Below are positions 1 to 19,579 of a stretch of 64,000 nucleotides of DNA, piece after piece; the first letter of the stretch is position 1, and each line of letters starts with the position of its first letter. This DNA comes from Candidatus Forterrea multitransposorum CG_2015-17_Forterrea_25_41 (lineage in GTDB: Archaea > Iainarchaeota > Iainarchaeia > Iainarchaeales > CSSED10-239). Position numbers and translations under genes: made by a program. The notes beneath the pieces were generated by a model. That model did no database searches and was not told the origin of the DNA. It saw nothing but the letters and a program-made list of their open reading frames with translations. The stretch is taken from the NCBI GenBank assembly GCA_009392915.1, contig CP045477.1:256001-320000 (forward strand), in the 5' to 3' direction.

Positions 1-2832
1 TCATTTGTAAGCATACCTGTTTCAGCTGAGTTAGGTGATGAAGCAAAAAGCCAAGTAGGAAATGTTTTAATTGAACAAGTATTTTTAGGTGGTGGAAAAC
101 TTCTAAATAAAGTCTTTGGACTAAACCCAATAGTTCACGGTGTCTTAGCAGGTGGTTTTTCTGCAATAAATACTTTTTCTCAACTTTCAAAAGTAGAAAT
201 TGATTTTTCCTTAGATAGAGATCAAGTAAACCTTTCTGAAGATAAAGAAGATTATTTTGAACCATATGATAATTACCTTTTAGATAATAAAATAGAACAA
301 GATGTAACTTTAAAAGACAACATGCTTTTAACTGATAAAAATATCTTAGATGCACAATTTATTGAAACAAAAAATTTATCTGAAATTGATAATGGAAGTA
401 ATTCTCCAAATTTTAGACTTGCAGATAAAACAAAACTTGTAAAAGTTTTAGATTCAAATAATCAAGCAGTATCTTTACAAAAAAGAGAAATATTATTTGA
501 AGATACAAATAAAACAATTGAAAACGAATATGAATATAGAACCTTTGTAGTTAAATATCCTAAATCAACATATACAGGAAAAGTAGATTATGATCTTGGT
601 TTTTCTGATCTTTTAGGATCATGGGCAAATCTTTTAGTTCCATTCTATAATGGTGCAAGTAATATTAAAATAAGTAAATTTTTAGATGGTTCTAATACAA
701 AACTTATAGAAAAAATAAATGAAGAAAAAAAAGAAGAAATACTTTTAGAACCTTTCAAATTAATATTTAATTCTTATGTTAGAGATTCACTTGAAAATGT
801 TGAAACAGACCAAGTTAACTGTGTTACTGAAGGTGGATTACTTTTAGGTCAAACAGGAACAGAAGCTCTTCCAAATATAGCTTTAGATTGGACTTATAAT
901 TCTTCAAATGCACAAACAATTTCAGGTATGAATGTTTCAAGACTTGATTGGTGTGATGCTGATTTAACTGGTGAAGAAAACAAAAACTCAATCTTTTGTG
1001 ATTCAACACAATTCTCAATTGAACTTTTAAATAAACTTGAAAAAATTCAAAACTTTGTAAAAGATAATAAAGCTTCATTTACATGTCCAACACCAGGTGT
1101 TACTCAAAGCTTAATTTCAGAAAATAACAATATAGGAATAACACAATTAAATTCAAGTTATGATTCTTCAATAATTTCTGTTGAATATCTACTTGAAGGA
1201 ACAATGAATTTAGATGATTTTAATATTGTTCCAGAAACATTAGGAAGTTTAGCTCTTACTCTTCTTAAAGACGGAGTAGAGGAAGATAGTAAAATAATAG
1301 AGTTTACTTTAGAAGACTTTATTGAAAATAAATTCTCAGGAACAGAAGAATTTGATGTTGGTTTTATTTTTGATGATGAAACTAATTTTAAAATAACTGC
1401 AATTTTAACTTTATCAGATCCATATAGTTCAGTTGATTCAAAATTAGATAATCTTTTAGAAAATGAATTTACTCCAAATTCAGAAACTTGTGATTTAGAA
1501 AAAACATCTCAAAATATAAATCTTTTCTCTAAGAATAAGAAAATAGATACTTCATTAGTAGAGTTTAGATCTTATTTAATGAAAGATGGATATTCTAATG
1601 ACTTTAAATCAGACTTTGATAGATATTATAGACATACAATAACAGCAGCTCCAGATATCTATAAAGATTATTATTATAAATATTTTACAACAGATAATTT
1701 TACTTTCCAATCATCCTTTGATTCAGAACCTGGAAGATTAATGCTTCAAGGTCCTGGAAGATACAATGTTTTATTAAAAGTAACATTTGATGATGAATGG
1801 AATTTATTTGATAAAACAACAGATGAAGTTACAGGAAAAGTTGAAGTTATTTTAACAAGAGAAATTGCACCTGAAAGAGATTCTCCTCTTTACTATATGC
1901 CATTTAATGGTCTTGTTGGAATTGATTCTGAAAATGCAAGACAAGGTTATGGTGTTGACTTTACAGGAGATGTTGTAACAGTTTCAAAACTTCAAACTAA
2001 TGAATATTTAAGAACAGAGCCTTTTACACAATCTAATACAGTTAACACAGTTTCTGTAAAAGAGTATGGTAAAAATCCAACTGACTTTTCTTTCTTAAAT
2101 AATGGACAAACAAGAGGAATGCTTCTTAATATTAATTTATCAAGTACAAAAACAAATCCAGAGCTTGTCTTTGTTCCATCAAGAGCAACTCCTGTTGCTT
2201 TAAAAGTTTCAAATCAAAATAATGATGCTTATGCTTTCTATAAGCTTGATATAGGAGCTCCTCAAGCTCAAGGTGGAGAACCTGCATTAACTCCTGGTAG
2301 TTTAGTTCCATGGACAGGTGTTGGAAATTGTCTTGACTTTACAGGAATTTCAATTTTAGAAACTTATAAAGGTAGACCAGACATACATGCAATTTCTTCA
2401 AAACTTGCACCTTCAACAACAAGTGACACTGTTTCATATGGTGTTGAATGGGAAGGAAGAAATATTACTAGAAGAGGAGATGTATTCTTAAGAACAGTCT
2501 TTTACACACCAAGTAATTTTAAAACAGGTGATGGTTTAAGTGTACTTACTTTAGATTCATATGATGATGCAGCAGCTTTCTATACATTAGGTCAAGAGAA
2601 TGCAAGTTCTGTTGAGCTTAGAAATGTTTTAGGAAACAATGCAGATATTAAATATATTAGTGAAATCTTTTCACTTGTAAACGAAAAGAAAGCATGTATT
2701 GATTATACAGCTAATAATTTAAAAATTTCATATAATCCAATAGCCGTATCAGAACCATTATTTGGTGGAGATTTATCTTCAGATTCTCAAAATGCTTGGG
2801 TTGAAAGTAAAGGCGGATGTATAATAAATTAA
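1..2832 (+). CDS. Giant surface protein paralog, 5'-truncated. Frame 1 is open from base 1, so the gene begins upstream of the window. It carries the shared C-terminal module (CxTxxG...AxPxIxLxW, YxMPFNG...QGYG, WTGVGxCxDFxG, LRTVFY, KxCI C-terminal tail).
   Basis: No stop codon in frame 1 between base 1 and the annotated Met at 322. Conserved motifs match ORF 2848..10248 and ORF 13134..19577 in the same order. Asn/Ser/Thr-rich extracellular-like composition. Confidence 0.8.
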   Translation, partial: SFVSIPVSAELGDEAKSQVGNVLIEQVFLGGGKLLNKVFGLNPIVHGVLAGGFSAINTFSQLSKVEIDFSLDRDQVNLSEDKEDYFEPYDNYLLDNKIEQDVTLKDNMLLTDKNILDAQFIETKNLSEIDNGSNSPNFRLADKTKLVKVLDSNNQAVSLQKREILFEDTNKTIENEYEYRTFVVKYPKSTYTGKVDYDLGFSDLLGSWANLLVPFYNGASNIKISKFLDGSNTKLIEKINEEKKEEILLEPFKLIFNSYVRDSLENVETDQVNCVTEGGLLLGQTGTEALPNIALDWTYNSSNAQTISGMNVSRLDWCDADLTGEENKNSIFCDSTQFSIELLNKLEKIQNFVKDNKASFTCPTPGVTQSLISENNNIGITQLNSSYDSSIISVEYLLEGTMNLDDFNIVPETLGSLALTLLKDGVEEDSKIIEFTLEDFIENKFSGTEEFDVGFIFDDETNFKITAILTLSDPYSSVDSKLDNLLENEFTPNSETCDLEKTSQNINLFSKNKKIDTSLVEFRSYLMKDGYSNDFKSDFDRYYRHTITAAPDIYKDYYYKYFTTDNFTFQSSFDSEPGRLMLQGPGRYNVLLKVTFDDEWNLFDKTTDEVTGKVEVILTREIAPERDSPLYYMPFNGLVGIDSENARQGYGVDFTGDVVTVSKLQTNEYLRTEPFTQSNTVNTVSVKEYGKNPTDFSFLNNGQTRGMLLNINLSSTKTNPELVFVPSRATPVALKVSNQNNDAYAFYKLDIGAPQAQGGEPALTPGSLVPWTGVGNCLDFTGISILETYKGRPDIHAISSKLAPSTTSDTVSYGVEWEGRNITRRGDVFLRTVFYTPSNFKTGDGLSVLTLDSYDDAAAFYTLGQENASSVELRNVLGNNADIKYISEIFSLVNEKKACIDYTANNLKISYNPIAVSEPLFGGDLSSDSQNAWVESKGGCIIN

Positions 2833-2847
2833 AAGAGGGATTAATTA

Positions 2848-5800
2848 ATGTCATTTAAAGATGCTTGGCAAAATTTTCTAACAAAGATAGACAACAGAAT
2901 ACCAATTAAAAAGATAACAGGCCCACTTGATAAAAAAAATCCCTTAACTTCTTTTTTTATTTTTCTTTTAATAATTTTAGTTGTTTTATACTTAATCTTT
3001 GGATCAAGTATAACACTAAATAATCAAAAACTAACTGAAGTTACAATAAGACTTGCAGATTCAGATAATAATATTTTAGATAATTTTGATTTTAAGATTA
3101 GAAATATATCTGATGGAATAACAAATAGTTATGTTACAAACTCATCAGGTTCTTTAACTTTAGAACTAGATTTAAATAAAAAATATTTATTAATTATTGA
3201 TTCTCCTAATTATGAACTTTTAGAAGAAGAAATTAATTTATCTTTAGATTCTTTAAATTTTATAGTTACTGTTTTAGATACTCCAATTAATTATTTAAAA
3301 ACAGTTTACTTTGAAGATGCATTAACTAATAGCTTAATTGAAGATTCTTTAAATGTTACAATTAGATGTGATAATGGAGAAATAATTACTCCAAATACTA
3401 TTGATACTCAATCTGGAAGTGTAGAAATTAATGTTCCTTTAGAATGTGAAAATATTTATGCATCTGTAAGAGGAGATAGGTATATTGAAGAAAATCTAGA
3501 GATGCCTATTACAGAAAGTACTTTCAAGCTTGAATCTATAACTGAAATATTAGAGAGTGGAAGAGTTTCTATTTCAGTATTTTCTGGAGAAGATATTATT
3601 CAAGATTCAATAACTATTAAAATATTTTCAGTTGATGATTCAATAACTCCAATTAATACTACACAAACAACAAATGGAATTGGTTTTTTTAATTCAATAC
3701 CAGTTGGTGAATATATTGTTAAAGCAAGTGATGTTTCAAATAGATATCTTCAAAAACAAGAACAAGTTACAATAATTAAAAACTCACTTTCTGAAATTAC
3801 ATTTGATTTAATAGATACAGATACAGACTCTCCTATAATAATTGATCCTGATACAAATCAAGAAATTGTTATAAGAGAAGTTACTGTTTTTGTAAAAGAT
3901 AAGGATTCAGGAGAAATTATAGATTCTTCTTTTGATCCTAGTGTTACTTTACTTTTAGATGGTAATGAAAATATTGAACAAAGAAACCTTAATGAAGGTT
4001 TTATTTTTAATATTTCAGAGGATAAATCATATTCTCTTAAAGCAACAGCAGAAGGTTATATTCCTGGAGAAATTATTCCAATAATTTCTGGTAAAAATAC
4101 ATATATTTTTAATTTAGAAAAAATAACAATAAGTAATGTTTCAAACCTTAATATTACTGTTCAAGATGAAGACTTAAAACCAATTGTTGGTTTAAAATCT
4201 TGGATATATGATAAAGATGGACAATATATAGATCCTAGATTTGATTTTTCAACATCTGATGAAAATGGAAATATTGTTTTTGAAAATATTCCTGATCTTA
4301 ATTTTACAATAAAAGTTAAAAATAGTTTTATTGAAGAGACTTCTTCAATGTATCATAATTCTCCACCAGAAGATACTAACATAACATTACCTGTAGAGAT
4401 TGGTACTGGTACAGTTAATTTAACTGTTAAAAATAAATTAAATGATATTGTTTCAAATGCACAAGTTACTTTTTATTCTGAAAGTTTAGAAGTTTTAGGT
4501 AGTTCTTTTGCATCTTCAAATGGAACTTTAGAAAATGATCTTAAAGCTGATAAAAGAATTTTTATAAAAATAGAAGCTGATGGTTATCTTCCTTACTTTA
4601 CAGAGCTTTTTAGAATTTATAAAAATAAAACAGTTACAAAAGAAATTATTCTTGAAAGAGAAAATTTATCAGATGATGTTTCTGTTGAGTTTTTAGGACT
4701 TTATAATTCTTTAGATACTGAAGTTGAATCTTTAAAAAACAATGAAGTATTTTATTTTAAGTTTAAAGCAATCATGCCTGTTTCAAGTCAACATTTTAAT
4801 TTTGTATTTAGAGCAGGTTCTTTTACTTCAGTAACAGAAGATATTGTTTTTATAATGCCACAAAATACTTCTTTAGGTATTCCTGTTTATTATGAAAATG
4901 AGCCATTTAATGAATCAGGGAATTATTTAGAATCTAAGTTAGTTGATATTGAATTCTTAGGATATCCTGCTTCAGTTCATGAAATTACAATTCCTATAAG
5001 AATTAAAAATGCAGCTATTAATGAAAGAGTTTCTTTCTTTTATGATTCTTCAATAAATAATATTGACTTTATGTCAAATAATTTTAATCAATTACAATAT
5101 TTTATAGAAGCTACAAGTCTTTGTGGAGAAGATTTTTGTTTTTCAGGACAATATGTTGATGTTTCTCAAGACTTAAGATATGATATTTCTTCAAATAATT
5201 TAATTTCAACAAATATTCATTCAGATTATATTTTAGAATATCAAATTACAAATTCTTCTTCAAATAGTTTTGAAGATGTAAGACTTTCTACAAGAAATTT
5301 AAATAATGATGATAATCCAGTAGCTATGATTAACATTAATAGTTATTCAATTTCTGGAGAAGCAACTTCTGTTGGTCAAACAATTGAAGGAGAAAATAAT
5401 TTTAATATTCCTTTTACTGGTGATGAAATTAATTTAGAAAAAATTAATCCTTTTTCAAGTATTAATTATACTTTAAATGTAACTCCTTTAAATCTTGGAC
5501 AATCTAAACTTACAAATAGAATTATTTCTCTTCAAGAAGAAATCTATTCTCTTCCTATAAACTTTTCAGTTTCAGAACTTGAAACTATGGAAATTGATTA
5601 TGAACCTAAAAATATTGTTCCTGGACTTCCTTTTGATTTATTAGTAACTGTAAAAGATACTCAAGGAGAATATTTAGAAGGAGTAAATATTAATATTTTA
5701 CAAAAAGTTAGAAATGAGTATATTACTGTTTCAACAGGAAAAACAACTGATCCTCAAGGAAATGTAATAATAACTTTACCATCTTTAAGACCAGGAGAGA

Positions 5801-8800
5801 CTTTTGAAATACAAGCTATAAAGTCAAAATATTTTTCTCAGAATGTTTCTTTTACAATCGGAACTGATATTTTAGATGTTTATTCTCAAGAGCAAATATT
5901 ATCTTCTGAAAGTCCACTTGAAGTATTTATTCATAAAACAAATATTAATGGTGAAACTTATTCTTTAACTTTAAAAAACAAAACAAACTATGCTTTAAAA
6001 ATTAATCAATTTAATACTGAAGATTTTTCTTTTAATAAATCTTATTTACTTAATTTAGAGCAAACTGTTAATTATCTTAATAATCAAATAACTTCTCAAG
6101 CAGAAGGTTTTGTAATTCCTGCAAATGAATCTAAAGAAATTGTAATTAAGTTTGCCCCTTCAGATTCTGCAAGAACTCATCCTGTTTCAGAAGATATTTT
6201 AGGTGCAATTACAGGAAATTATTCTTTAAATAATTATGATTATCGTTTTACAATTCCTGTTAAAGCAAAATTTTCTGTTGGAAGTGGTGTTTTATTTGAT
6301 GATTGTTTAGTTGTAACTCAAAGTCCAGGAGAATGGAATACTGTTGTTTCTACAAGTACTCAAACAACTTCTTTTACAATAAAGAATACTTGTCTTTCAA
6401 AAGAAGGAGAAGTCCCAATACCTATTAAAAATGTACAAGCAAAGATATCTTCTCAAGCAGATAGATATGGTGTTTATTTCTTAAACCTTATAGGCCCATC
6501 TTCTTCAAATCAAATACAGTTGTCTGAAAATTACTATAGAGTTGTAATTGATCAAATGGCTCCTGAAGAAGAATATAGAGTTGATTTAACATTTAATACT
6601 AATGGTACAAGATTTGCAGATGTTAAAACAAATATACATCTTAATGCTCAAGTAGAAACTGAAGATGGTTTATCTTTTGTAAATAAAGAACCTAAAGATA
6701 TTTTCTTAAAAACAAATATTTCAATAATGAATCTTAATGATTGTTTTTCATATATTGATCAAAATGGAAAAGTAATTAATTCAGGTGGTCTTTATACTTT
6801 AGAAGGTATTGAAGAAAATGAATTAACTATTAGAAACAATTGTCAAGGAAAAGCTACTTTTAAAATGAATCTTTGTGATGCTTATGATTTAGGTTGTAAT
6901 GATTTAATTATTACAAATACAGATGAAGAAAATAATATTTTAAGATTTTCACTTAACGATTCTGAAAAAACAGTATATATTAAAAAAGATTCAACAAAAG
7001 CACCTGGTGCTTATATTCTTAATAACAGAGTCTCTGTTATAAATAATTTTGAAAGAGAACTTGCATCTTCTTTTGCTCTTTTAAAAATAAATGCAAAAGA
7101 TCCTAATGGTTTATGGATGGAAGATCCTTTTATAGAGATTAATGAAGATAAAGTTTCTGAGATTAAAAGATTATATAATAATAATTTAGAAAAGACTCCT
7201 TGGGATTATGCAAGTTATTATCAAGGAGAAGAAGGTTTTGGAAAATTTATAACAAATATTTATTATACAGGAAATACTTGGAAAAAATCTTTTAATCAAC
7301 ATTGGAGTAGATGTATAGCTGGAGATGATACTTGTTTATTTAACGGGGATAATTCTTTACTTTCAATGAGATTTTTACCAGAAAATCAATTAAGTAATGT
7401 TGGTGCAGAAGGATTAAGTGCAGGTGGTGCAATTGGGATAGGAATTGGTACTGCTGCAATTGTTTCATTAGTTTTAATTATGGCAAAAGTTGCTGTATTA
7501 GGAAGTCTTTTAGGACCTGTCGGTTGGATAGTTGCTGGACTTTCAATTGTTGTTGCATCAATAGCACCATCTTTCTTTTCAGATTATGATGTAGATGTGC
7601 AACCAAGGTTTTTGGATGTTTCTGAAAATAATACTATTGATAATTTAGTTGCTTTAAAAGAAATATCTGTAGATGATTTAAGTGATCAAAAAGAATTAAT
7701 TAATGTATTTGATATTACTGGTGCAAGATATTTTAAATATTTTAATAATGTTATTTTTGCACATGGAAAACTTGCTTCTAAAAAAGAAATTAAAAGTGTA
7801 CTTCCAAAATGTAATGGTATAAATAATTTAGTGCCTGTTGATCAATTTTTAAAAGTATATAATAAACCTCCATTTTGTGATGAAATAACTATAGAAGAAA
7901 CTGAAGATTCTTATATTTATAAAACAAGTTGTAATGGACAAAAATTAAATAGACTTGAATTAAATTTATTCTATAGTGCTTATTCAATATGTAAAAGTGA
8001 TGAAACATATTGGCCAGAACAAGCAGGTATAAAACCTTTACAGTTTAATTTAACTGATGAAATATATAATTTATTAGATAATGATTCTAAAAAATATTAT
8101 TTTAAAAAATATGAATTTAATCCAACTTTAGATGATTCAAATAGCACACAAGATTTAGCTTTTGTAGATTCAGATAGTGTAGGAAATTATAGATTTGGTT
8201 TCTTTTTAACAAAACCTGAAGAAACACCAAATTATGATCTTTCATTACAAGAATGTGTAACTGATACTGGAAGAACTGGAAAAACAGGAGAAGGTGCAGT
8301 TCCAAATATTTCTCTAAATTGGAATTGGGCTGAAACTGATTGTGCACAAACATATTGTGATGCAACTCAATTAACTCAAGATGTTTTAGATAGAATTAAT
8401 GATGCTGAAAAATTAATTTCATCAAATGTTGTTCAATGTCCTATAAGTAATCAAGAACTTTATGACCAAGCATTAAATGGTTCTTATAAAGTAACTGCAG
8501 AACCATCTGATGTTATTAATGAAATACCTGTTGGAAAAGTAGGTATTAATTCTGTAAAATTAGATTCTCAAAATAATAAATTAGCAATAAAAGTAGTTTT
8601 AGAAAACAGATCTGATACACCATCTTCAGGAACTATTGTTATTAGTCTTGATGATAAACAATTAGAATCTATAAAATACAGAGATGTAGCTTCAGGAGAA
8701 TATATTGAAGAAAATATAGATTATCCTGGATCTTATTCAAAAAGTATAACTGTTCCTTCTGGTATTGATAATACTAATGAAATAATTTTTGTTTATAAAG

Positions 8801-10248
8801 AAGGAATTTATGGTGAAGACTTACCTTTAACTATTGATTATTTAGCAACAAATTCACATAGTAATATGTTTGCTTCAAGTGTTGATTTATCAAGTTATCA
8901 AGCAGAAGAAATCAATGAGTGTCAAGTTCCAGCAACAACTGCAAGATTTGATGGAACAAGTTATTTAGATATGTGGCTTAATAAAGAAATGTATCCTGAT
9001 AATGTTGTAGGTTCTGGTTGGTCTCAAACTGATATTACAAAACTTAAAGAACTTTTAGAGTTTGATGCATACTTAATAACAGATAATTATAATAGTAATT
9101 TTAAAAATGACTTTGATATGGCCTTCGGTGGTCTTGCTTCAAAAGAAGATGGAGCTGGAGCTGGAAATTATGCTATAATGTCTTCTCCAACTGTGTTTTC
9201 AAATGGTTATCTTTCTAAATTATTTAAAAACAATTTAATATTTACAAAAGAATATTCAAGTGAAGAAAATGTAAATATTAATGTTCCAGGAAAATATAAA
9301 ATTAAAATTGATTTATTATTTGAAAATGGTTCTTGGAATTTTTATGAAGGTGATGATCTAGATGTAAATGCATTTGTAACTTTTAGATTTATTTCTTCTC
9401 CAGAAACAGATAGTGTTTTCTATAGAATGCCATTTAATGGATTTGTTGGAAAAACAACTTCTGGATATGATAGACAAGGTTATGGTGTTTCTTACTTAGG
9501 AGATTCTATAAGAGTTGATAATGAAAATGTAATTACAGAAGAAGATTATGGTTCAAATTCATTAAGAACAATAACTGTTACAAAATCAAATGATCTTTCA
9601 AGAATTAATTCAAATATTGAAACAAGAGGTAATCTATTAAGTATTAAATATAATCAAACAGACAATGTAGATTTAATATTTACTCCAAGCACACCAATTC
9701 CTTTACTTATGAGTATTGATAAGAGTAATAATAGCCCTCTTAATGTGATTTATAGACTTAAAGATAAGAGTGGTAATGCTATTAGTTCAACTTCTTTATT
9801 AAGATGGACAGGTGTTGGTTCTGGTTGTGACTTTTCTGGTAATTCTATATATAATATGACTTATTATGATAGATATGCTGGAGATGAAGGTGCAGTTTCT
9901 GCATATGTAGTTGATTGGCCACAAGTCTTAAGAACAGGAAAAATATATTTAAGAACTGTTTTCTATAGTCCTGAAAGAGAGTCTTATTCTTTAGAGAATA
10001 GATCTGATCAAGGTGTTATGGTTAAGTTTTCAAAGAATGGAACTAATTATTCTTCTTCAGTTTCTTTAGGTGAAGATGATTTAACAGGCATTAAATCTAT
10101 TTCAGATGTATTTAATTTAATTAAAGATAATAAAGTATGTGTTGTAAATTCATATGATGGAAAAACTTCTGATTTCTTTTATAATCCTTCAGAAATTTTT
10201 ACAGAGAAGTTTACAAAACAACCTTCTGATTCTTTAGAATGTAGTTAA
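2848..10248 (+). CDS. Giant (2466 aa) membrane-anchored surface protein. It has an N-terminal signal-anchor TM, multiple carboxypeptidase-regulatory-like or transthyretin-like beta-sandwich repeats, an internal two-helix TM hairpin (aa ~1520-1575), and the conserved Cys-containing C-terminal module.
   Basis: Long uninterrupted ORF 15 nt after the previous gene, with an AGAGGG RBS-like motif. Hydrophobic segment LTSFFIFLLIILVVLYLIFG. Repeated ...GYxPxxxEL/... beta-sandwich-like units. Gly/Ala-rich hydrophobic hairpin AGGAIGIGIGTAAIVSLVLIMAKVAVLGSLLGPVGWIVAGLSIVVASIAPSFF. C-terminal motifs ECVTDTGRTGKTGEGAVPNISLNW, FYRMPFNGFVGK...RQGYGV, LLRWTGVGSGCDFSG, IYLRTVFYSP, NKVCVVNSYDG. Confidence 0.85.
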   Translation: MSFKDAWQNFLTKIDNRIPIKKITGPLDKKNPLTSFFIFLLIILVVLYLIFGSSITLNNQKLTEVTIRLADSDNNILDNFDFKIRNISDGITNSYVTNSSGSLTLELDLNKKYLLIIDSPNYELLEEEINLSLDSLNFIVTVLDTPINYLKTVYFEDALTNSLIEDSLNVTIRCDNGEIITPNTIDTQSGSVEINVPLECENIYASVRGDRYIEENLEMPITESTFKLESITEILESGRVSISVFSGEDIIQDSITIKIFSVDDSITPINTTQTTNGIGFFNSIPVGEYIVKASDVSNRYLQKQEQVTIIKNSLSEITFDLIDTDTDSPIIIDPDTNQEIVIREVTVFVKDKDSGEIIDSSFDPSVTLLLDGNENIEQRNLNEGFIFNISEDKSYSLKATAEGYIPGEIIPIISGKNTYIFNLEKITISNVSNLNITVQDEDLKPIVGLKSWIYDKDGQYIDPRFDFSTSDENGNIVFENIPDLNFTIKVKNSFIEETSSMYHNSPPEDTNITLPVEIGTGTVNLTVKNKLNDIVSNAQVTFYSESLEVLGSSFASSNGTLENDLKADKRIFIKIEADGYLPYFTELFRIYKNKTVTKEIILERENLSDDVSVEFLGLYNSLDTEVESLKNNEVFYFKFKAIMPVSSQHFNFVFRAGSFTSVTEDIVFIMPQNTSLGIPVYYENEPFNESGNYLESKLVDIEFLGYPASVHEITIPIRIKNAAINERVSFFYDSSINNIDFMSNNFNQLQYFIEATSLCGEDFCFSGQYVDVSQDLRYDISSNNLISTNIHSDYILEYQITNSSSNSFEDVRLSTRNLNNDDNPVAMININSYSISGEATSVGQTIEGENNFNIPFTGDEINLEKINPFSSINYTLNVTPLNLGQSKLTNRIISLQEEIYSLPINFSVSELETMEIDYEPKNIVPGLPFDLLVTVKDTQGEYLEGVNINILQKVRNEYITVSTGKTTDPQGNVIITLPSLRPGETFEIQAIKSKYFSQNVSFTIGTDILDVYSQEQILSSESPLEVFIHKTNINGETYSLTLKNKTNYALKINQFNTEDFSFNKSYLLNLEQTVNYLNNQITSQAEGFVIPANESKEIVIKFAPSDSARTHPVSEDILGAITGNYSLNNYDYRFTIPVKAKFSVGSGVLFDDCLVVTQSPGEWNTVVSTSTQTTSFTIKNTCLSKEGEVPIPIKNVQAKISSQADRYGVYFLNLIGPSSSNQIQLSENYYRVVIDQMAPEEEYRVDLTFNTNGTRFADVKTNIHLNAQVETEDGLSFVNKEPKDIFLKTNISIMNLNDCFSYIDQNGKVINSGGLYTLEGIEENELTIRNNCQGKATFKMNLCDAYDLGCNDLIITNTDEENNILRFSLNDSEKTVYIKKDSTKAPGAYILNNRVSVINNFERELASSFALLKINAKDPNGLWMEDPFIEINEDKVSEIKRLYNNNLEKTPWDYASYYQGEEGFGKFITNIYYTGNTWKKSFNQHWSRCIAGDDTCLFNGDNSLLSMRFLPENQLSNVGAEGLSAGGAIGIGIGTAAIVSLVLIMAKVAVLGSLLGPVGWIVAGLSIVVASIAPSFFSDYDVDVQPRFLDVSENNTIDNLVALKEISVDDLSDQKELINVFDITGARYFKYFNNVIFAHGKLASKKEIKSVLPKCNGINNLVPVDQFLKVYNKPPFCDEITIEETEDSYIYKTSCNGQKLNRLELNLFYSAYSICKSDETYWPEQAGIKPLQFNLTDEIYNLLDNDSKKYYFKKYEFNPTLDDSNSTQDLAFVDSDSVGNYRFGFFLTKPEETPNYDLSLQECVTDTGRTGKTGEGAVPNISLNWNWAETDCAQTYCDATQLTQDVLDRINDAEKLISSNVVQCPISNQELYDQALNGSYKVTAEPSDVINEIPVGKVGINSVKLDSQNNKLAIKVVLENRSDTPSSGTIVISLDDKQLESIKYRDVASGEYIEENIDYPGSYSKSITVPSGIDNTNEIIFVYKEGIYGEDLPLTIDYLATNSHSNMFASSVDLSSYQAEEINECQVPATTARFDGTSYLDMWLNKEMYPDNVVGSGWSQTDITKLKELLEFDAYLITDNYNSNFKNDFDMAFGGLASKEDGAGAGNYAIMSSPTVFSNGYLSKLFKNNLIFTKEYSSEENVNINVPGKYKIKIDLLFENGSWNFYEGDDLDVNAFVTFRFISSPETDSVFYRMPFNGFVGKTTSGYDRQGYGVSYLGDSIRVDNENVITEEDYGSNSLRTITVTKSNDLSRINSNIETRGNLLSIKYNQTDNVDLIFTPSTPIPLLMSIDKSNNSPLNVIYRLKDKSGNAISSTSLLRWTGVGSGCDFSGNSIYNMTYYDRYAGDEGAVSAYVVDWPQVLRTGKIYLRTVFYSPERESYSLENRSDQGVMVKFSKNGTNYSSSVSLGEDDLTGIKSISDVFNLIKDNKVCVVNSYDGKTSDFFYNPSEIFTEKFTKQPSDSLECS

Positions 10249-10321
10249 AAGTAATATATATAAATATATTGCTTAACTATATTTTATAGGTTTAATATAT
10301 ATATATTAGGTTAGTATAATT

Positions 10322-10684
10322 ATGAGAAGATACATTTATTTATTTTTAATCGTTTTCTTAGTTTTTCCATTTATTTCTGCACTTAGTTATGATAATGAAA
10401 TCTATGTAAACCCTTTTGTTTTTGGTGTAATTAGAGGGGATGATGGGGAAGTTATTTCAAATATTTCTGATGATGAAATAATAGATCCTGAAATGCAAGT
10501 TTCAAGTGCAAATGGGTTTACTAAAAAATCAGATCTTGATTTAACCATAAGAGAGAATCTTTTGATTTTTAAACTTCCTTCTTATCAAAAAACAAATAAT
10601 AATTCTTTAAATAAATATACTTTTATTTATAATACCTTTGATTATCCTTCAAAGAATGTAAATATTTTATTTAAATTAAATTGA
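10322..10684 (+). CDS. Small secreted protein (120 aa) with an N-terminal signal peptide. Function unknown.
   Basis: N-terminal segment MRRYIYLFLIVFLVFPFISALS followed by a hydrophilic mature part. Stop overlaps the start of the next ORF (ATGA-type coupling). Confidence 0.55.
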   Translation: MRRYIYLFLIVFLVFPFISALSYDNEIYVNPFVFGVIRGDDGEVISNISDDEIIDPEMQVSSANGFTKKSDLDLTIRENLLIFKLPSYQKTNNNSLNKYTFIYNTFDYPSKNVNILFKLN

Positions 10685-13110
10685 GAAAATATATGAGATA
10701 TTTAAAAAAAATTATTTTAACAGTAATATTAATTACTTTTATTTTACTAGTTCAATCATATGTGTTTTCAGCAAGTTGTAATTTAACTCCAAATCAAACT
10801 TCTCTTAGAACTCTTTCTTTAGGTTGTAGTGGTGATGCTTGTGATTTTGTTTTAATTAAAAGTGAAGATGTATCTTCTCAATATAATTCTTGTATTGATT
10901 CTTGTGATCCTGATAATTATCCTGAAAATTACAAAACTTGTATGACTGATTGTTATGATTCTTCAATTAATTCTACAACTGATATTTCATTAAACAGTTC
11001 TTTAAGTTTTTCAAAATCTTCTGAATGCTCTGATAAAGAAATAAATGTTTCTTTAGCAGCAGATATTAATTTTGAAATGTTAAATGAAACAACTTCTCTT
11101 TCAATTTCAGGTATTGATTCTTTAAATACTAATGGAAAAGATATTATAATTTTTGTAAACAATAATGATAAACTTGGAGATGCAACTTTTAGGTTTGATT
11201 TTAGTGATTTAATAATTTCTGATACTTCTAAAATAATTATGACAACAAAAGAAAGAACTTCAATTACAGATTCTATTAATGGTGGGTGGGATGATTGGAA
11301 AAGAGATGGTATTAAACTTTATTTTAATAATTTAGAAATATTAGAAAATGCATCACTTGATTTAAATATGTATATTCCTAAAAATATTTTTAATGTAATT
11401 GATGAAATAGATATGCCTAGAACTTCACTTGCAGGTGGTGAATTAACTTTTGATGGAAACTTAATAGTTAATAATGGTAATTTAAATATTTATCTAAAAG
11501 CACAAGATAGTCAAGATGGTAGAAATTATATAGATTCTGGAAATTGTTTTGATGATCCAGCTTCACAAGGTGGAACTGTTAAAGAGGCAGGGCACATATT
11601 TTTTAACTTAAATTATTTAGAGAATAATGGTTTACTTTTTTCTAAAATGTTATCTGGAAATGGTGGTATTGGAGGTAATGGATCAAAAGCTCAGGATGGA
11701 TGTCGTGGAGATCCTCCAGGTCATGGTGGTAGAGGGGGAAATGCAGGAGATATTTTTTTATATATTAATAATATAGATAATACTAGTAATATTGATTTTA
11801 ATTTAATTGCAGGAAATGCTGGTCCTGGTGGAGATACAGGTTTTGATGGTGGAAATTCTCGTGAAAATTTTGCTATTGGAGGTTCTGGTGGTAATGGAGG
11901 AAATATTTATTTTTGTAAACCAATTTGGAATTCTGGCTTTAGTTGTTTGATAAATAATTATAATTCATTAATAAATAAAGGTAATTTTAATTTAGTTGCA
12001 AATACTGGTTTTGGAAATAATGGTGGAAATAAGAATAATCATCCTGATGAAGGTAGAGCAGGAGATGGAGGAGATGGTGGTTCTTATTTATCAAGTTTAA
12101 CGTTTGATTTTATAAGAAACTCTGGAAATTTAAATATTGCTCTTGAAACAGGTTATGGTGGTTTTAAAGGAACTACTGATGGTGGTGAAGATGGTGTTGG
12201 TGGAAGAACTCCTAATTTTTTTATTAATTTCTTAGAAAATTCTTCTGAAAATTTAAATATATTTTTAAACAGTAAACATGAAATTGGTAATCTTGAATCA
12301 GATGTTATTATTGATAAATTACAAAATGGTAGTTATCTACCAAGTATGATATATACTGTTTTTACTGATTGGACTTTTACACCTAGTGAAGAGTGTGCAA
12401 TTAGTTGTCAATCTAAATTTGATTCTTGTTATCATTTGCCTTCAGCTTGTAATAGATTTTTAGATATGTGTTTATATACTTGTGATAAAACTACAGAAGA
12501 TCTTGAAACTGTTACACAAAATAGAAAAATAAAAATTAATGATGCATGTTATGTTAAACAACCATCAAGTGCTTTAGATTATATGACTGGATTTATATAT
12601 GTTAATTCTGCAAATAAAGATGTTTTTGAAAATCTTCTTCCAGAAAATGTTTCTTCTAATCTTACTAATAACTCAGAATGTGTAATCTGTGATTATTATG
12701 ATTTTGAAAATTTAAATGAAATATTTCCAACAGGTTCTGGAAATAAATTCTTTAAAAACTATACTTTATATTCTACAGTTCAAGGAAAAATTAATGCAGG
12801 AGATTTAGAAATACATTATGCTAAAAATGATCTATCTTTTACAAAAATAAATAAGCTTTATAATCCTTTTACAAAAGAAAATAATCTCCCACTTTATTCT
12901 AATAAACAAGATATAACAAGTAGTCAAGAACCTAATTCTCTAGGTTTGTATGAATATAATATAGATGCAAGTAATCTTGAATGGTATTATGATAAAGAAA
13001 TGGACTTATCAGAAAAAGATTTATATTGTTATAATCAAAATTATAGAATTGAAGGAAAAATAGGAACTAAGATTTTTAACTTCCCATTTACTCCATTATT
13101 TAAAAATTAA
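10681..13110 (+). CDS. Secreted Cys-rich, Gly-rich repeat protein (809 aa). It carries about 6 copies of an xNLNIxLxxG beta-strand-like motif, each followed by a GGxGG-type glycine stretch. The N- and C-terminal regions are Cys-rich.
   Basis: Signal-peptide-like N-terminus (ILTVILITFILLVQSYVFSASC). Internal repeats NGNLNIYLKAQD, NTSNIDFNLIAGNAGPGG, NKGNFNLVANTGFGNNGG, NSGNLNIALETGYGG, SSENLNIFLNS, separated by GGIGGNGS / GHGGRGGNAGD / GGSGGNGGN / GDGGDGG / GGEDGVGG stretches. Many Cys before aa 100 and after aa 550. Confidence 0.7.
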   Translation: MRKYMRYLKKIILTVILITFILLVQSYVFSASCNLTPNQTSLRTLSLGCSGDACDFVLIKSEDVSSQYNSCIDSCDPDNYPENYKTCMTDCYDSSINSTTDISLNSSLSFSKSSECSDKEINVSLAADINFEMLNETTSLSISGIDSLNTNGKDIIIFVNNNDKLGDATFRFDFSDLIISDTSKIIMTTKERTSITDSINGGWDDWKRDGIKLYFNNLEILENASLDLNMYIPKNIFNVIDEIDMPRTSLAGGELTFDGNLIVNNGNLNIYLKAQDSQDGRNYIDSGNCFDDPASQGGTVKEAGHIFFNLNYLENNGLLFSKMLSGNGGIGGNGSKAQDGCRGDPPGHGGRGGNAGDIFLYINNIDNTSNIDFNLIAGNAGPGGDTGFDGGNSRENFAIGGSGGNGGNIYFCKPIWNSGFSCLINNYNSLINKGNFNLVANTGFGNNGGNKNNHPDEGRAGDGGDGGSYLSSLTFDFIRNSGNLNIALETGYGGFKGTTDGGEDGVGGRTPNFFINFLENSSENLNIFLNSKHEIGNLESDVIIDKLQNGSYLPSMIYTVFTDWTFTPSEECAISCQSKFDSCYHLPSACNRFLDMCLYTCDKTTEDLETVTQNRKIKINDACYVKQPSSALDYMTGFIYVNSANKDVFENLLPENVSSNLTNNSECVICDYYDFENLNEIFPTGSGNKFFKNYTLYSTVQGKINAGDLEIHYAKNDLSFTKINKLYNPFTKENNLPLYSNKQDITSSQEPNSLGLYEYNIDASNLEWYYDKEMDLSEKDLYCYNQNYRIEGKIGTKIFNFPFTPLFKN

Positions 13111-13133
13111 TTTAAAAAAAGAGAAGAAAGAAT

Positions 13134-16100
13134 ATGTCAATATTTAAAAAATCAAGAGACAAAATAGAAGCAGAAAAGCTATATGCTCTTTTATCAGACA
13201 AAACTACAAACTATACTCTAGAGGATATTAAAGAGACTATTAAAAAACAAGGTTATTCTGATAAAGTTTCTTCAATTGTTGTAAAGATGATTACAGATAA
13301 TAAACTTCCTTTAAAAGATTCAGTTAATAAAACAAAAACAAAAGAAGAAGTCTTAAAAGAATTATCAGCTTCTGTTGATAAAAACTTCTCTAAACAAAAT
13401 CCAAAAGATTCTTCAAAAGATTCAAAAAAAGAAGATAAAAATAATCAAAAAGAAAATACAAAAAAACAAGAAGATATTAAAAAAGAAGATTCTAAAAAAC
13501 AAAAAGAAGATCTTAAAAAAACAAAAGAAACAAATTTAAAAAATATTAATAAAGTTCCTTTCTTTACAAAAGTAAAAACTTTCTTTAAAAGAATATATTT
13601 CTTTTTTGAAGATAATTACTATAAGATGGTTGATGGTGTAAGTAAAGTTATACCTCTAAACAAATTAACAGACAAAATAGATAAAGTTTTCCCAAGTTTC
13701 ATATTATTCTTATTAATCTTAGCTTTATTGATATATTTAATACTTTCAGGAAGTTTATCTTTCTCTAAAACTTGGACAGTTGCTGTAGAGGTTTATGACC
13801 CATCTTCTGTACCCTTAAAAGATGTTTCTGTAACTTTAATGCTTAAAGATGAAAATTTTTCAACTTTAAAAACAGATATTTTTGGTGAAGTTATTTTTAG
13901 TGATTTTAAATCTAGAAAACAAAATATTAATTTAATAGCTTCTAAAGATAATTATGATACAGTTGAACATTCCTTTAAATTAAGTAAAAGTAATTTAAGA
14001 CAAAAGTTATATCTTCCAACAGATGTAAATTCTAAGATTGATCCTTCAGAAGAAGAAGTAAGAGAAATTTCTTTTGTTGAAAATAATACTGTTTTAATAA
14101 CAGATTCTGTATTAACTACAAATTTTTCTTGTACTAATGCAGATGTAGAACCTAATCCTACAAGAAAAGTTATTTCTTCAGGAAAGGTAACAGTTACAAC
14201 TTATTCTGGTTGTGGTGCTTTAAGAGTTTCTGTAACTTCAGATGATTTTTCTTCAATTACAAATCAAGTTATAAATTCTTCAAATAAAGTAAATCTTACA
14301 AGAATTAATCTTGATAGAGGTAATTTAGGTTTCTCTGTTAAAAACATATCTGGAAGTTCAATTCCTGGAACAGAAGTTAAAGTTTATAGTTCTTCAAACA
14401 CTACTTTTCCTCATGATACAACCACAACTGATCTTTATGGTTTAGGTGAGTTTAGTTTAGAACCTAAAAGTTATTTTTTAACTTTCTCAAAAGAAGGTTA
14501 TCTAACAAATCCTTTAAAAGGTCCTTTAACTGTTATTAAAAATGATTCTGTAAACACAGATGTAGTTTTATTTACTTTAGATGATCTTTTAGAATTTGAT
14601 TGTTCTGATGATAAATATTCACAATTTTGTATTGCTGATGAAATTGATTGTTTTAATCCAAACTTAAAACCATTTTTAATAAATAATGCTGATGGTTCTT
14701 GTACAATTGGAAGACCAGGTTATATTTCTGTAACTTTAAAAGATGTTAATTCTGGAGAACCTGTATATGCAGATATAACTTTAGATTCAAAATTAAAAGA
14801 ATCTGATCAAAACTTTTCTCTTGGTGAACATATTGCAAGGGATACTAATTTCTATACTTTTAATGTTATTGATTTCTATAATTATAGAGTAAGAGTTTTA
14901 AATACAGAAGAGAGTGGTTATCTTCAACCAGATCCAGTCACTGTAAACGGTATTGATCAAAATATAACAGTTAATTTAGAATATTCTTCTTCCCTTAACT
15001 CAGGAGATATTTCAGTAAATGTTAAGAGTGCAGATATGCCTATCTCAAATGCAAGAGTTTATTTATATAAAGAGTTTGAAGATGATTTTGTTTTAGTAAA
15101 TTCTGATCCATTATTTACAAATCAAAATGGAGATGTTAATTTTTATTCTCAAAGAGCAAATAGAGATTATTATGCTTATGCTTTACATAATGTTTTAGAT
15201 AAACAAGGAACTTCACAAACAGATGATTTAGATGTTAACTCAATACTTGATTTATCAATAGATCTTGAAGATATTCCAAAGATATTAAATCTAAAGGTAA
15301 GTCCAAGTATTTCTTATGATATTAATTTTTATAATTCTTCAGATAATCTTGTAACTGAATATGTAAGAACAGATCTTGAAGATGGAAATTCTCTTTATTA
15401 TTTTACAGGTTCTATAAATAAAGTTTATGCAGTTGTTTCTTCTTCAGGTTATACTACCTATCAAACAGATTATATTACTTTAATACCTGATCAAGAAGTT
15501 TATAAAACAGTTAATCTTTCTACACTTTCTTCTTGTGAAGACTCTAAGTTAGAAATTTTAGGTCTTTATGATGGTTCTGGAGTTTTAGAAATTGATAATA
15601 TTGATTTTGTTGAAAATGATTTAGATAAAGAATACAGATTAAAGTTTAAATATATTTCATGTACAGAAGATGAAGAATACAATCAAGCTACTTTAAGACT
15701 TGGAAGACAAGGTTTAATAGATGATGAATATTTATTCTTTGTTTCAGATCAATTTACTTCTCAAGATATAGATGTTACAAGAGGTTATAAATTTTCACAA
15801 GAACATATACCTGACTTTAATTTTGATCTTTTCAATCTTAATTATTCTCAAGATAGATCTTATGATTATTCTGGTGAAGGTTATAAATGGATTGAAATTG
15901 ATTTTGAAAAATTAAATTCTGATATCTTAGAGTTTTCAACTAACTTTAAGTTCAGAGAAGATTCAATTGTTCCTTTTGAAAACTATGTTTTAAATTATAA
16001 ATCATTTGCAAGTATTTATGATGAACTTTATTCTTTTGATCCTGTTTTAAATGAATCTTGGACAGAGATACCAATCTATCCTAATGGTTATTTTTATGCA

Positions 16101-19100
16101 GAAACAAACAAATATTTAATACCTTTTGAAAATACAGATTATATTTATTCTGTAAAATTAAAAGACTGGAATCAAAATCTTTTAGAAGAATATGCTGGTG
16201 GTTATCCTGTATCTATTAATAATTTTTATAAATATGATCTAAGTTATTTATATTTAAATCAAACAGAAAGAAACGGTAGTGTTTTACAATCTTCTCAATA
16301 TACAAATAATAATTTAGATTATTTAAGTTATGGTTATACTTCATCTTTAGGTAACTCAAGTTCAGGAGATACTCAAAATGCTACAAATAACATGACTTCA
16401 TTTTTAATACTTCCAGATTATAATACTCTTCCAGGTTCAACAGATACTACTATAAATCAAGAAATCTATTATCATATTAATGTTGATGATTATAATTATT
16501 CTTTAGATGATATTAATGCAGAGATTGGTTATTATTTAAATACTTATACTCTTTTAGAGCCAAAAGGTTTTTTTGAAAATACTAATTTTTCAGATTCAAG
16601 TATTATTTCTGATGTTTTAGATGAGTACCCTTTAGTTAATACAAGTATTTATTCTTATTTATCTGATGAAAATTTTATATTTAATATTTCAACTAACTTT
16701 TCAGGAAACAGAATAATTATTGGTGAAAATAATTTAGGTTTTAAAGTTTTAGATAATTATGGTTCTCCAGTTTCAAATGTTTTAATAAAGTATAAAGTTG
16801 ATGGTGATGAGCTTATAACTTTAGGGTCTACAAATGAACAAGGTATGCTTAGTGATCAAAATATTTTTATAAATCTTTCAGATATTGGAAAAAATATTAA
16901 TTTTGTATTTTTGTTTTCTCCAGAGTTTGGTTTCCTTGCAAACACAGTTGTAAGAAACAAAGAAATCTATTCTGGATTTTCAATAGTTCCAGAAGATATT
17001 AATTTATCTGCAAGTTATTATATTTTAAATGATCAAGTTATAATTGATCAAGTTTCTACAAATAATTATAATCTTTTAAAAGAAACAAATTATTCAAGCA
17101 CTTTAGAAGAAATTGATTTTGTTGGAGAATCAAGTTTGTTTAATCTTGATTCTATTAAAAATAAAATGATTGAAGATAATAATCTTGTAAAAGATTTATT
17201 AGAAGGAGAAAATGAAATTATTACAAGTCTTTTCTTAAACAATAATATTTCTCAATCAACAAATCTTTTAGGTTATTATAGAAATGAAATTGATATTAAT
17301 AATTCTTTAACACAATTATTAGATATTAATTCAAATGTTGAAATTATTAATCTAGGTTCAATTAACTATGATTTTAATCTTGAAAAACATTTTATGAAAG
17401 GACTATTAATTGAAAACAATAATGTTTCTCTTGAGCTTATAAAAGAAATAAACGAATTAATTACTTTAGATTTAAATCTTTTATCAGATAACTCTCAAGC
17501 AACATTTGATAGTATTTCTGTAGAGCTTCCTGAATTTTTAGATCTTGAAGAATTTAATGAAGGTTATTCTTCTTTAGTTGGAGAGTCTTTAACTTCTGAT
17601 GGTTTAATAATTCCTCTTAACTTTAAGATTAATAACTCCTATTCAGGTTCTCTTCCAACTCCAAAGGAAGATATTAATTTAACTTTTAATGTTTATCTTG
17701 ATGATAAATTAGTTTCTTTTAATAAAATAATTTCAATAAAAGTATATTCTAAAGATGACATCTTTTTAATAGAGTCTGAAGGAGACTTACAGATCTATTG
17801 TACTGTTGAAAATTGTTCTCAAAAAAAATCTTTTACTTTTAAAAAATTAGTTAATAATTATATATTAAATCTAAATAAAGAAATTGAAATCAATGAGATG
17901 GATTTAATTGAAGTTTCAAATCTTTTAAGTAATATTAATTTTATTGACCTTTCTGAAAAGAACAGAGCTTTATCTTTTAGTGCCCTATATAATTCTGTTA
18001 ACGAAGAAAATAAACAAGGTAATTTTGATTTAATTTTTAATATTAATATTTTAAATGATTCTTTTAATATAGAAATACCTATTGATTATTTAATTATAAA
18101 ATATTTAGAAGAAGAAACCATAAGTGAAATTACTTTTAATTCCTGTATTGGTGTTGGTGGTCAAGAAAGCAGTAGTGATTTATTTATTTTAGGTTATTGT
18201 CAAGATACCCAAGATACTTGTAAAACAGGAGAATCTGCTGTTCCAAAAGTATTTTTTAATTGGGCAGAATCTGACCTTTCAACAGATTATGACGGAAAAA
18301 CCTGGAATAATGTCTGTATTGGTAATAGCCAAGATACAATGTCAAGTAAATATGCTTGTGATTCCTTACAAATGTTAATTTCAATTTTTAATAAAATTGA
18401 TAATGGTGTAGAAGAATCATTCTATATTAAACTTTTAAATGATGGAATTTCTGATGCTCTTTTAAAAGATTTTATAAATTATAATACACTTTACTTAGGT
18501 TATGATAAACCTAGTGAAGAGATCTTTTCAGAAGATGCAGTTGATGATGGTTTATTTAAAATAACAATTAATAATTCTCCAGAAATTAAAATTTTCCAAC
18601 CTGGTATCTATAAAGTTTTAGTATATGGTGATGATTCAGGAAATGCATATATGGGAAGAGAAGAAGATCAAATGATAGATATACGTCTAGAAAAGGTAAG
18701 TGATCTTCCTGCATCAGAGATAAGTGTATTCCACTATATGCCATTTAATGGTAATTTAGGTTTAGATGGTACAAGAGAGGGTTACGGTATTAAAAATCAA
18801 GATAGTGATGTTGCTCAATTAACTCAAGATGTTGATATTAATTATATTGATGTTATAGATGAAATAATTCAACTATCTTTAACTAATAATAATCTAGAAA
18901 CTTCTCACTTAACACAAACATTAAAGTCTGAAGGAAAAATACTTGAATTAAATAAATATGATAGTGTTGTTGAAATGATTTATTCTCCTTCATATCCAGT
19001 ACCAATATATTCTCATGTAGCATGTATTGATAAAGATGATTTTAGTTATAATCTTTATGAAAATAATAATGCTTTAGATAATATTATAGGTGGATCATTT

Positions 19101-19577: not shown

Positions 19578-19579
19578 AT

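Follow-up and report, generated by a model that had tools for sequence, protein, structure and literature searches.

A likely Gly/Ala-rich hairpin within a strain-variable block of a giant DPANN surface protein

We analysed a 64,000-nucleotide (nt) stretch of contig CP045477.1 from Candidatus Forterrea multitransposorum (positions 256,001 to 320,000; the whole stretch is called the window below), and focused on a Gly/Ala-rich hydrophobic segment in the middle of a giant surface protein of 2466 amino acids (aa). The window has 25% G+C and encodes the split B and A subunits of RNA polymerase, a DNA ligase of the ATP-dependent kind and translation genes of archaeal type; these genes mark it as archaeal in origin, and the host of the giant-protein gene is a low-GC DPANN archaeon (Iainarchaeum/Diapherotrites). 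The gene and the main parts of its product are listed here, with window positions, strand and the evidence for each:

2848–10248 (stop codon included), + strand: giant surface protein gene, 2466 aa (open reading frame (ORF) list, translation)
2848–2952, + strand: conserved basic tail, predicted cytoplasmic, aa 1–35, MSFKDAWQNFLTKIDNRIPIKKITGPLDKKNPLTS (nearly invariant across the 14-homologue alignment)
2953–3015, + strand: N-terminal signal anchor, aa ~36–56 (Kyte-Doolittle peak 3.03; simplified Hessa sum −5.6)
3016–7209, + strand: ectodomain 1, aa 57–1454, ~1400 aa of immunoglobulin (Ig)-like/beta-sandwich repeats and Cys-containing beta domains (Pfam Ig-like matches)
7420–7578, + strand: putative Gly/Ala-rich hydrophobic hairpin, aa 1525–1577, 53 residues (hydropathy, alignment, AlphaFold2, GxxxG statistics)
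7579–10245, + strand: ectodomain 2, the C-terminal beta-rich module, aa 1578–2466, ~890 aa (paralogue homology, profile search, AlphaFold2)

The tail holds seven Lys or Arg residues within its 35 aa, and by the positive-inside rule the N-terminus of the giant would thus be cytoplasmic (N-in). A Pfam scan of the giant returned CarboxypepD_reg, SpaA, Big_1 and MG4 Ig-like domains alone, all within the N-terminal ~1100 aa. NCBIfam gave zero matches for the seven scanned proteins of the gene cluster, including the giant, and a sequence search of all PDB chains with aa 1420–2466 found nothing meaningful. All homologues are annotated in their sources as ‘hypothetical protein’ or ‘carboxypeptidase regulatory-like domain-containing protein’.

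A Kyte-Doolittle scan (averaged over 19 residues, threshold 1.6) detected just two hydrophobic regions in the 2466-aa protein: the N-terminal anchor and the segment at aa 1525–1577, whose peaks of 2.43 and 2.11 lie above the usual threshold. The initial annotation had described an internal transmembrane (TM) hairpin at 7400–7580 (aa ~1520–1575), with ~1480 aa before it and ~890 aa after it. The segment is present close to that position: the peptide AGGAIGIGIGTAAIVSLVLIMAKVAVLGSLLGPVGWIVAGLSIVVASIAPSFF was found exactly at aa 1525–1577 (nt 7420–7578), preceded by 1524 residues and followed by 889. Its 53 residues hold a single charge, and they divide as follows:

7420–7512, + strand: helix 1 region, aa 1525–1555, AGGAIGIGIGTAAIVSLVLIMAKVAVLGSLL, with the glycine-zipper part GGAIGIGIG... 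and K1547 inside (sequence, simplified Hessa minimum −0.8)
7513–7527, + strand: turn G-P-V-G-W, aa 1556–1560 (alignment; close-subfamily consensus P-x-G-W)
7525–7578, + strand: helix 2, aa 1560–1577, W-IVAGLSIVVASIAPS-FF (AlphaFold2 helix, conserved flanking motif)

Helix 2 has aromatic ends, W1560 and F1576/F1577, that are ~17 residues apart, and the acidic sequence SDYDVD follows it directly. Small residues are spaced by three throughout the segment (G1526-x3-G1530-x3-G1534, G1552-x3-G1556, G1559-x3-A1563, S1566-x3-A1570). We also calculated simplified Hessa sums for the best 19-mers, adding the central-position apparent free energies of Hessa et al. without weighting by position. On this scale the hairpin helices scored −0.8 and +2.0, the N-terminal anchor scored −5.6, and the remainder of the giant scored +8.8 or more. 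Judged by its sequence, the segment is clearly special and yet marginally hydrophobic in the window’s protein.

An AlphaFold2 model of aa 1420–2466 (16-row alignment) had a mean predicted local distance difference test (pLDDT) score of 70.5, with values mostly of 70–90 in the C-terminal module. The helix 1 region was modelled mostly as coil (pLDDT 25–36). Helix 2 was the sole part of the segment given as a long helix (aa 1559–1576, model residues 140–157), and it continued straight into a beta domain. A buried domain core, which the initial annotation had named as the alternative to a TM hairpin, is not where the model places the segment. We also considered an internal start at M1545 (MAK followed by the hydrophobic core) that would make the segment a signal peptide; this was rejected, as the Met is not conserved among homologues.

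A word-indexed search yielded 13 full-length homologues (2392–2525 aa, 22–86% identity in the alignment) and one identical copy. A hydrophobic island rich in Gly, Ala, Ser and Thr occurs at exactly the same junction in 11 of the 14 full-length homologues in the alignment, and P0006, P0011 and P0012 are without it; the retention at this junction that the initial annotation had suggested looking for was therefore borne out in most homologues. The sequence of the island is nearly unalignable among homologues, and its position is conserved. A recurring pattern consists of a P-x-G-W turn, then 14–18 hydrophobic residues, then the motif (F/W)-x-(N/S/D)-(D/E)-(Y/F). Among species-level genome representatives, seven of the eight close ones (L004–L011) have an island and the more distant L012 has a weaker one.

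The C-terminal region defines a much larger superfamily. An exhaustive profile search with this region matched 723 cluster representatives at E ≤ 1e-3, and 471 at E ≤ 1e-30 (clusters defined at 50% identity). The members listed were mostly 2300–2600 aa long with the module at the C-terminus, and a second class was ~1000 aa long. We examined 105 non-redundant giants drawn from the top matches, and 73 of them carried a hydrophobic island at aa ~1440–1630, directly before the C-terminal module. In many distant relatives the last helix of the island equals a true anchor in hydrophobicity: its Kyte-Doolittle value reaches 3.0, and its simplified Hessa sum falls as low as −4.

The initial annotation had remarked on GxxxG-like packing motifs, and these are indeed present in the window’s segment (G1526/G1530/G1534 and G1552/G1556). 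Taken alone, the segment’s three GxxxG motifs are not significant against 1.3 ± 1.0 in shuffled sequences. Over the 73 islands, GxxxG was enriched (163 observed vs 96.2 ± 8.3 in within-sequence shuffles), as was [GAS]xxxGxxx[GAST] (165 observed vs 102.9 ± 9.0), whereas the N-terminal anchors of the same proteins showed no GxxxG enrichment (15 observed vs 15.4 expected). The composition and GxxxG periodicity of the islands are thus under selection, and the enrichment points to helices that pack through glycine faces. Several distant relatives (P0038, P0046, P0056, P0062, P0079, P0082, P0085, P0130) have CPxC at the hairpin turn, and by a crude criterion cysteines bracket the island in at least 23 of the 73 giants, as C-[DE]-W upstream and as [ED]DPC downstream. 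These cysteines of distant relatives point to either a metal site or a loop closed by a disulfide, and they would fit a disulfide that closes the loop on the outside of the cell.

The side of the membrane on which the flanks lie could be judged from paralogues of the giant in the same cluster:

1–2832 (cut by the window start), + strand: upstream paralogue with signal peptide, Gly-rich amphipathic stretch, then C-terminal module (frame-1 translation, no stop before nt 2830)
13134–19577, + strand: 2147-aa paralogous giant with one TM segment (aa ~190–210) and a related C-terminal module, without an internal hydrophobic segment

The full-length version of the upstream paralogue, which has 973 aa and begins with a typical signal peptide, was seen in L001 (L001:7064–9985), a syntenic 27.5-kb locus from a sister strain (GCA_015657875.1) that served as our comparison locus. 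The giant’s C-terminal module (aa ~1800–2447) is homologous to the C-termini of both paralogues (blastp of the upstream paralogue vs giant aa 2069–2447, E = 4e-37). In these paralogues the module stands behind a signal peptide or a single anchor; it is therefore extracellular, which leaves the segment with either zero or two membrane crossings. As ectodomain 1 comes after an N-in anchor, both flanks of the segment lie on the same side of the membrane. Both island flanks are acidic, the downstream one strongly so (net charge −15 per 100 aa across the superfamily), and in this it resembles the flank on the outer side of the N-terminal anchors. N-glycosylation sequons numbered 2.0 per 100 aa on one side of the segment and 1.6 on the other, vs 0.7 in cytoplasmic proteins; we rejected sequons as a topology marker because they were weak, with an observed/expected ratio of ~1.2 in ectodomains and cytoplasmic proteins alike. 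As an observation in its own right, stand-alone paralogues of ~970 aa (window 1–330; P0033, P0047, P0065, P0107, P0112) consist of a signal peptide, the conserved Gly-rich amphipathic motif VGxxPxxHGxxxGxxSGxxTY, the motif EIDFxLxxDxVNIS, and the C-terminal module.

Comparison with L001 revealed that the hairpin lies in a stretch where the two strains differ sharply. The window and L001 were 98.2% identical at the nt level, gap-free, over 35–7210, and 96.9% identical over 8863–20245. Three pieces occupy the interval between these:

7211–8009, + strand: HV1, aa ~1455–1721, low-confidence linker, hairpin and beta domain (AlphaFold2); no detectable nt similarity to L001
8010–8552, + strand: conserved middle piece, aa ~1722–1902; 85.6% nt identity to L001, invariant residues in the alignment
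8553–8862, + strand: HV2, aa ~1902–2005, a beta-sandwich domain (AlphaFold2 strands, model residues 479–597); no nt similarity to L001

Protein identity to the sister allele was 98–100% in the flanks (including aa 2020–2466) and 17–40% at aa ~1455–1720 and ~1875–2000. The middle piece contains the motifs WPEQAGIKP and CxTDTGxxGKTGEGAVP...YCDATQL. Relationships among alleles differed between backbone and variable pieces. The window’s backbone was 98% identical to P0002 and 37% to P0025, whereas its variable pieces were closer to P0025 (HV1 45%, HV2 41%) than to P0002 (HV1 19%, HV2 25%). The cassettes of P0002 resemble those of P0004 and P0005. These discordant identities indicate that the block at aa 1455–2005 has been exchanged between lineages, and thus the hairpin sits within a block swapped by recombination. 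The hairpin’s place in this strain-variable block is its most distinctive property, and the initial annotation had missed it.

A further, nested event separates P0018 from P0002. Over the whole gene these alleles share 97% identity, rising to 100% in the immediate surroundings of the hairpin, but their hydrophobic core (~190 nt) differs by many substitutions and in-frame indels; the helix 1 region is the most variable among near-identical alleles. A compensated frameshift behind the difference was rejected, as the DNA alignment consists of substitutions and in-frame indels. Members of a cluster at 90% identity or more usually share the same hairpin. A search of the 64-kb window for further copies of HV1 or HV2, as DNA or protein, gave nothing beyond chance matches of at most 41 nt. 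We rejected a diversity-generating retroelement or a silent-cassette mechanism, and continuous targeted hypermutation, because there were no donor copies in the window, the differences were indels, and the hairpin was stable in near-identical populations. The pattern of variation looks like episodic recombination rather than programmed hypermutation.

We favour the reading that the segment is a glycine-zipper-type helical hairpin in the cell’s own membrane, giving the giant three spans and two ectodomains, and we place the probability of this at roughly one half. The giant would be exported Sec-dependently and anchored N-in. Helix 1 (aa ~1526–1555) would act as a weak stop-transfer signal, the tight P-x-G-W turn would join it to helix 2, and helix 2 (aa 1560–1577, ~18 residues, aromatic-bounded) would act as a re-initiating signal anchor, with both helices entering the archaeon’s own cytoplasmic membrane as a pair. 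The product would be a ~1450-aa Ig-like stalk fixed at both ends, and helix 2 would keep the ~890-aa C-terminal module at the membrane. Glycine faces would pack helix 1 against helix 2, and possibly also against copies in neighbouring molecules. We infer membrane embedding, the membrane concerned, oligomerisation and the order of insertion. This reading is preferred because the last helix is strongly hydrophobic in many relatives, because the GxxxG periodicity is selected, because an even number of spans is required, and because helix 2 has aromatic and acidic boundaries. The Sec translocon is expected to release a strongly hydrophobic helix into the cell’s own membrane by stop-transfer or helical-hairpin insertion.

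Several results weigh against a hairpin in the cell’s own membrane. The marginal sums of the window’s helices (−0.8 and +2.0 vs −5.6) fall in the range that we calculated by hand for viral fusion peptides, and such peptides are translocated without being integrated into the membrane. Homologues differ in how many hydrophobic segments they have (0, 2, 3 or 4), and an odd number is incompatible with a strict spanning topology. AlphaFold2 gave pLDDT <50 for aa 1519–1573, that is, most of the segment. The turn carries very few charges and few basic residues, and aa 1490–1600 of the giant matched none of the Pfam glycine-zipper clan models (PF05433, PF13488, PF13441, PF13436), even at E ≤ 10. In the ~970-aa secreted paralogues the Gly-rich motif, aligned by eye at the position of helix 2, is amphipathic and too polar to span. 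The hydrophobic core is the most variable spot between near-identical alleles, which is odd for a membrane-buried element. P0009 has the hairpin and P0011 has none, with 77% identity in the backbone and 19% in HV1. Finally, P0184 (a Logan contig in the P0008 cluster, ≥90% identical) carries a 19-aa in-frame deletion at aa ~1525–1545 of that cluster’s protein, running from the last part of helix 1 across the turn into the first part of helix 2; this may represent a natural allele with a collapsed hairpin, or else an error of assembly. With a hairpin in the own membrane, its loss or collapse in relatives would shift the C-terminal module from a membrane-proximal position to the end of a long stalk. 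The initial annotation’s two-helix internal TM hairpin therefore stands in part. Conserved position, GxxxG periodicity, the aromatics of helix 2, the acidic flank and the extracellular module speak for it, and marginal hydrophobicity, the spread from zero to four segments and low pLDDT speak against it; on balance we consider a hairpin likely.

The marginal hydrophobicity also admits a deployable element, which we regard as unlikely. That is, the hairpin would escape the cell’s own membrane, lie shielded at the junction of stalk and C-terminal module, either in an oligomer or by neighbouring domains, and on contact insert into a partner or host membrane, to act there as an anchor, as a pore of the glycine-zipper type or as a wedge resembling a fusion loop. 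Simplified Hessa sums in the close subfamily run from −1.7 to +4.6, compared with −5 to −7 for anchors, and the Gly/Ala-rich composition recalls fusion peptides and glycine-zipper pore formers, just as cysteines on both sides in many relatives recall disulfide-closed internal fusion loops. The variable block carries the hairpin together with two beta-sandwich domains, a pattern typical of partner-recognition surfaces; between alleles 97% identical overall the hydrophobic core alone has been replaced; and the existence of close relatives without a hairpin is easier to understand if the hairpin is an accessory, whether weapon or anchor, than if it defines the topology. Intimate contacts between cells are known in DPANN archaea (PMC11329633). 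Against it, capture by the cell’s own translocon would be expected in the many superfamily members with a strongly hydrophobic last helix, populations mostly keep their hairpin unchanged, and fold searches gave no specific match. Heptad-repeat helices beside the hairpin were absent from the AlphaFold2 model of aa 1420–2466, which is beta-rich with short helices and has a single helix of at least 20 residues at model residues 420–440; thus no long-helix machinery able to drive insertion adjoins the segment. To our knowledge, no host of Iainarchaeum-type archaea is known. A stronger version makes the giant an archaeal contact device: its N-terminally anchored stalk would present the hairpin as the working part, to be driven into another cell’s membrane to anchor, permeabilise or bridge it, and the block, with its two exchangeable beta-sandwich domains and the hairpin, would set partner specificity. 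This version strikes us as quite unlikely.

We consider it very unlikely that the segment never enters a lipid bilayer and serves as a flexible linker, or as an oligomerisation core buried in a multimeric stalk bundle. Such a role would suit a low-complexity, indel-rich sequence whose island ranges from 0 to ~150 residues across the superfamily and is dispensable in some homologues, as well as the low AlphaFold2 confidence with helix 1 as coil, some alleles (P0004) that are mostly Ala, Thr, Ser and Gly with Kyte-Doolittle values barely >1.5, and the amphipathic, charged version at apparently the same position in secreted paralogues. However, 53 residues with a single charge, exposed outside the cell, would be highly aggregation-prone, the selected GxxxG periodicity argues against an unstructured linker, the aromatics of helix 2 stand at membrane-spanning distance, and distant relatives have typical TM helices at this junction. 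A variant of the own-membrane hairpin, to which we assign only a slender chance, has an intramembrane or juxtamembrane protease cutting in the Gly-rich helix 1 and leaving two independently anchored proteins, the stalk and helix 2 with the C-terminal module. The separately encoded module proteins of ~970 aa, with their own N-terminal export signal, are a precedent for a free product, and rhomboid-type proteases typically act on N-out helices whose outer half is rich in Gly and Ala. This processing idea is wholly inferential, and no protease gene was seen among the scanned window ORFs. Protease sites flanking the hairpin, which the initial annotation had proposed to look for, did not emerge either: the homologue alignment has no conserved cleavage motif in the hypervariable flanks.

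The giant belongs to a same-strand cluster of surface-protein genes (window 1–20306, and L001) whose first ORF in the window extends past the 5' end. Gene order in L001 is 2323, 1926, 973, 2487, 120, 805 and 2148 aa, followed by two small multi-TM proteins (123 and 115+ aa). At 10681–13110 the window encodes an 809-aa signal-peptide protein, called with a TTG start and a 4-nt overlap with the stop of the preceding 120-aa ORF; it has no family matches and measures 791–809 aa among strains. A juxtamembrane cytoplasmic motif directly before the N-terminal anchor is common to all giants of the cluster (IPIKKITGPLDKKNPLTSFF, IPLNKLTDKIDKVFPSFILF, LYKITDKIDKVMPSFILF; window 2848–2952, window 13134–13760 and L001:1250–1420), and it could be a docking or export signal. 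Elsewhere in the window, a phospholipase-D-like protein with two PLDc motifs and an N-terminal hydrophobic segment is encoded at 27180–28307, between the alanyl-tRNA synthetase gene and tRNA-Pro. The ORF at 48477–49604 matched the Pfam N- and C-terminal domains of DXP reductoisomerase (E = 4e-15 and 2.5e-4), a methylerythritol phosphate (MEP)-pathway enzyme that is unexpected in an archaeon. Two adjacent ORFs at 50900–53301 (392 and 408 aa) matched MMPL/SecDF-type domains and may be a resistance-nodulation-division (RND)-like pair for lipid or protein export.

The attachment of DPANN archaea to other cells, and their exchange of material with them, are poorly understood, and their many giant surface proteins bear no more specific names than ‘hypothetical’ or ‘carboxypeptidase regulatory-like domain’ protein. 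The analysis defines a large family whose members share the same layout: a conserved cytoplasmic tail, then the anchor, an Ig-like stalk, a putative glycine-zipper hairpin and a conserved beta-rich C-terminal module. The swap of a block within one species, with the rest of the gene 98% identical, gives testable hypotheses on topology, on possible oligomerisation or channel formation, and on partner specificity. Should the hairpin prove no more than a second membrane anchor, the gain would be one of annotation, useful as a record of an unusual three-span topology, and no new principle. If it is instead part of a contact device, the family would be a widespread DPANN membrane-penetration system with strain-level specificity alleles.

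Among known systems, the segment appears to resemble most closely, in how it would work, the glycine-zipper two-helix hairpins. Glycine-zipper domains (PF05433 ‘Glycine zipper 2TM’/Rick_17kDa_Anti in SlyB/Pcp, PF13488 Gly-zipper_Omp, PF13441 Gly-zipper_YMGG) occur in small bacterial outer-membrane lipoproteins and toxins. They share with the window’s segment two short Gly/Ala-rich helices, a tight turn and GxxxGxxxG spacing (G1526/G1530/G1534). Unlike them, the window’s hairpin is internal to a 2466-aa archaeal protein, between two large ectodomains, and its helix 1 is longer (30 aa) and contains Lys. Among relatives, the junction of P0076 matched PF13488 at 28.1 bits, above the 25-bit cut-off, while the junctions of P0134 (PF13441, 24.3 bits, E = 2.5e-5, cut-off 28.9 bits) and P0118 gave glycine-zipper matches below the Pfam cut-off. 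These matches may reflect convergence rather than homology, because the Pfam models are short and compositionally biased.

Internal fusion loops and peptides are known from viral class I-type glycoproteins (Ebola GP2, ASLV Env, HIV gp41). Like these, the giant has a Gly/Ala-rich, marginally hydrophobic segment inside the ectodomain of an anchored protein, with cysteines on both sides in many of its relatives and similar simplified hydrophobicity sums (the gp41 value was calculated by hand). The window’s segment differs in being far longer, with 53 residues and two helices; no furin-like priming site was identified in the giant, and the helices of distant relatives are fully hydrophobic. The three-domain beta fold with domain II fusion loops that characterises class II fusogens and fusexins (HAP2, Fsx1) was not seen in the giant. 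Fold searches with the C-terminal module returned generic beta-sandwich or adhesin-like matches and nothing specific.

CdiA-type contact-dependent effectors have an internal variable receptor-binding domain, and the giant is like them in being a very long filamentous surface protein with an allele-class-defining variable region in mid-polypeptide. It differs in having no FHA/TPS domain, a conserved C-terminus, no immunity-like variable gene downstream and an archaeal single-membrane cell as its setting. We concluded that it is not a polymorphic toxin of the CdiA/Rhs kind because its C-terminus is conserved; the downstream ORFs are conserved too, and no toxin was matched in Pfam or NCBIfam. The segment is likewise not an archaeosortase/exosortase signal (PGF-CTERM and relatives), because it is internal (889 aa follow) and its flank SDYDVD is acidic, not basic. 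Literature searches yielded no paper on this family of giants, nor any on an internal hairpin in giant proteins of DPANN archaea.

The pattern of variation has a partial counterpart in VARTIG of Thermococcales, a large Ig-domain protein with a hypervariable, recombining C-terminal Ig domain and variable downstream genes, as described in the survey by Makarova et al. (2021, PMC8416519). Both are large archaeal multi-Ig surface proteins in which a defined part is recombined between lineages and the rest is conserved. The giant differs in that its variable block is internal (aa 1455–2005; nt 7211–8862) with the C-terminal ~460 aa 98–100% conserved, that its downstream genes are 97% identical between strains, and that the abstract of the survey mentions no hydrophobic hairpin for VARTIG. 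The giant thus lacks the combination of a hypervariable C-terminal Ig domain with variable downstream genes, and the likeness is one of principle. The giant adds a hypervariable Ig-type archaeal surface protein outside Thermococcales, where the survey reported none (PMC8416519). What is new is a likely glycine-zipper-type hairpin in an internal, giant-protein, archaeal context, together with an unanticipated population-genetic property.

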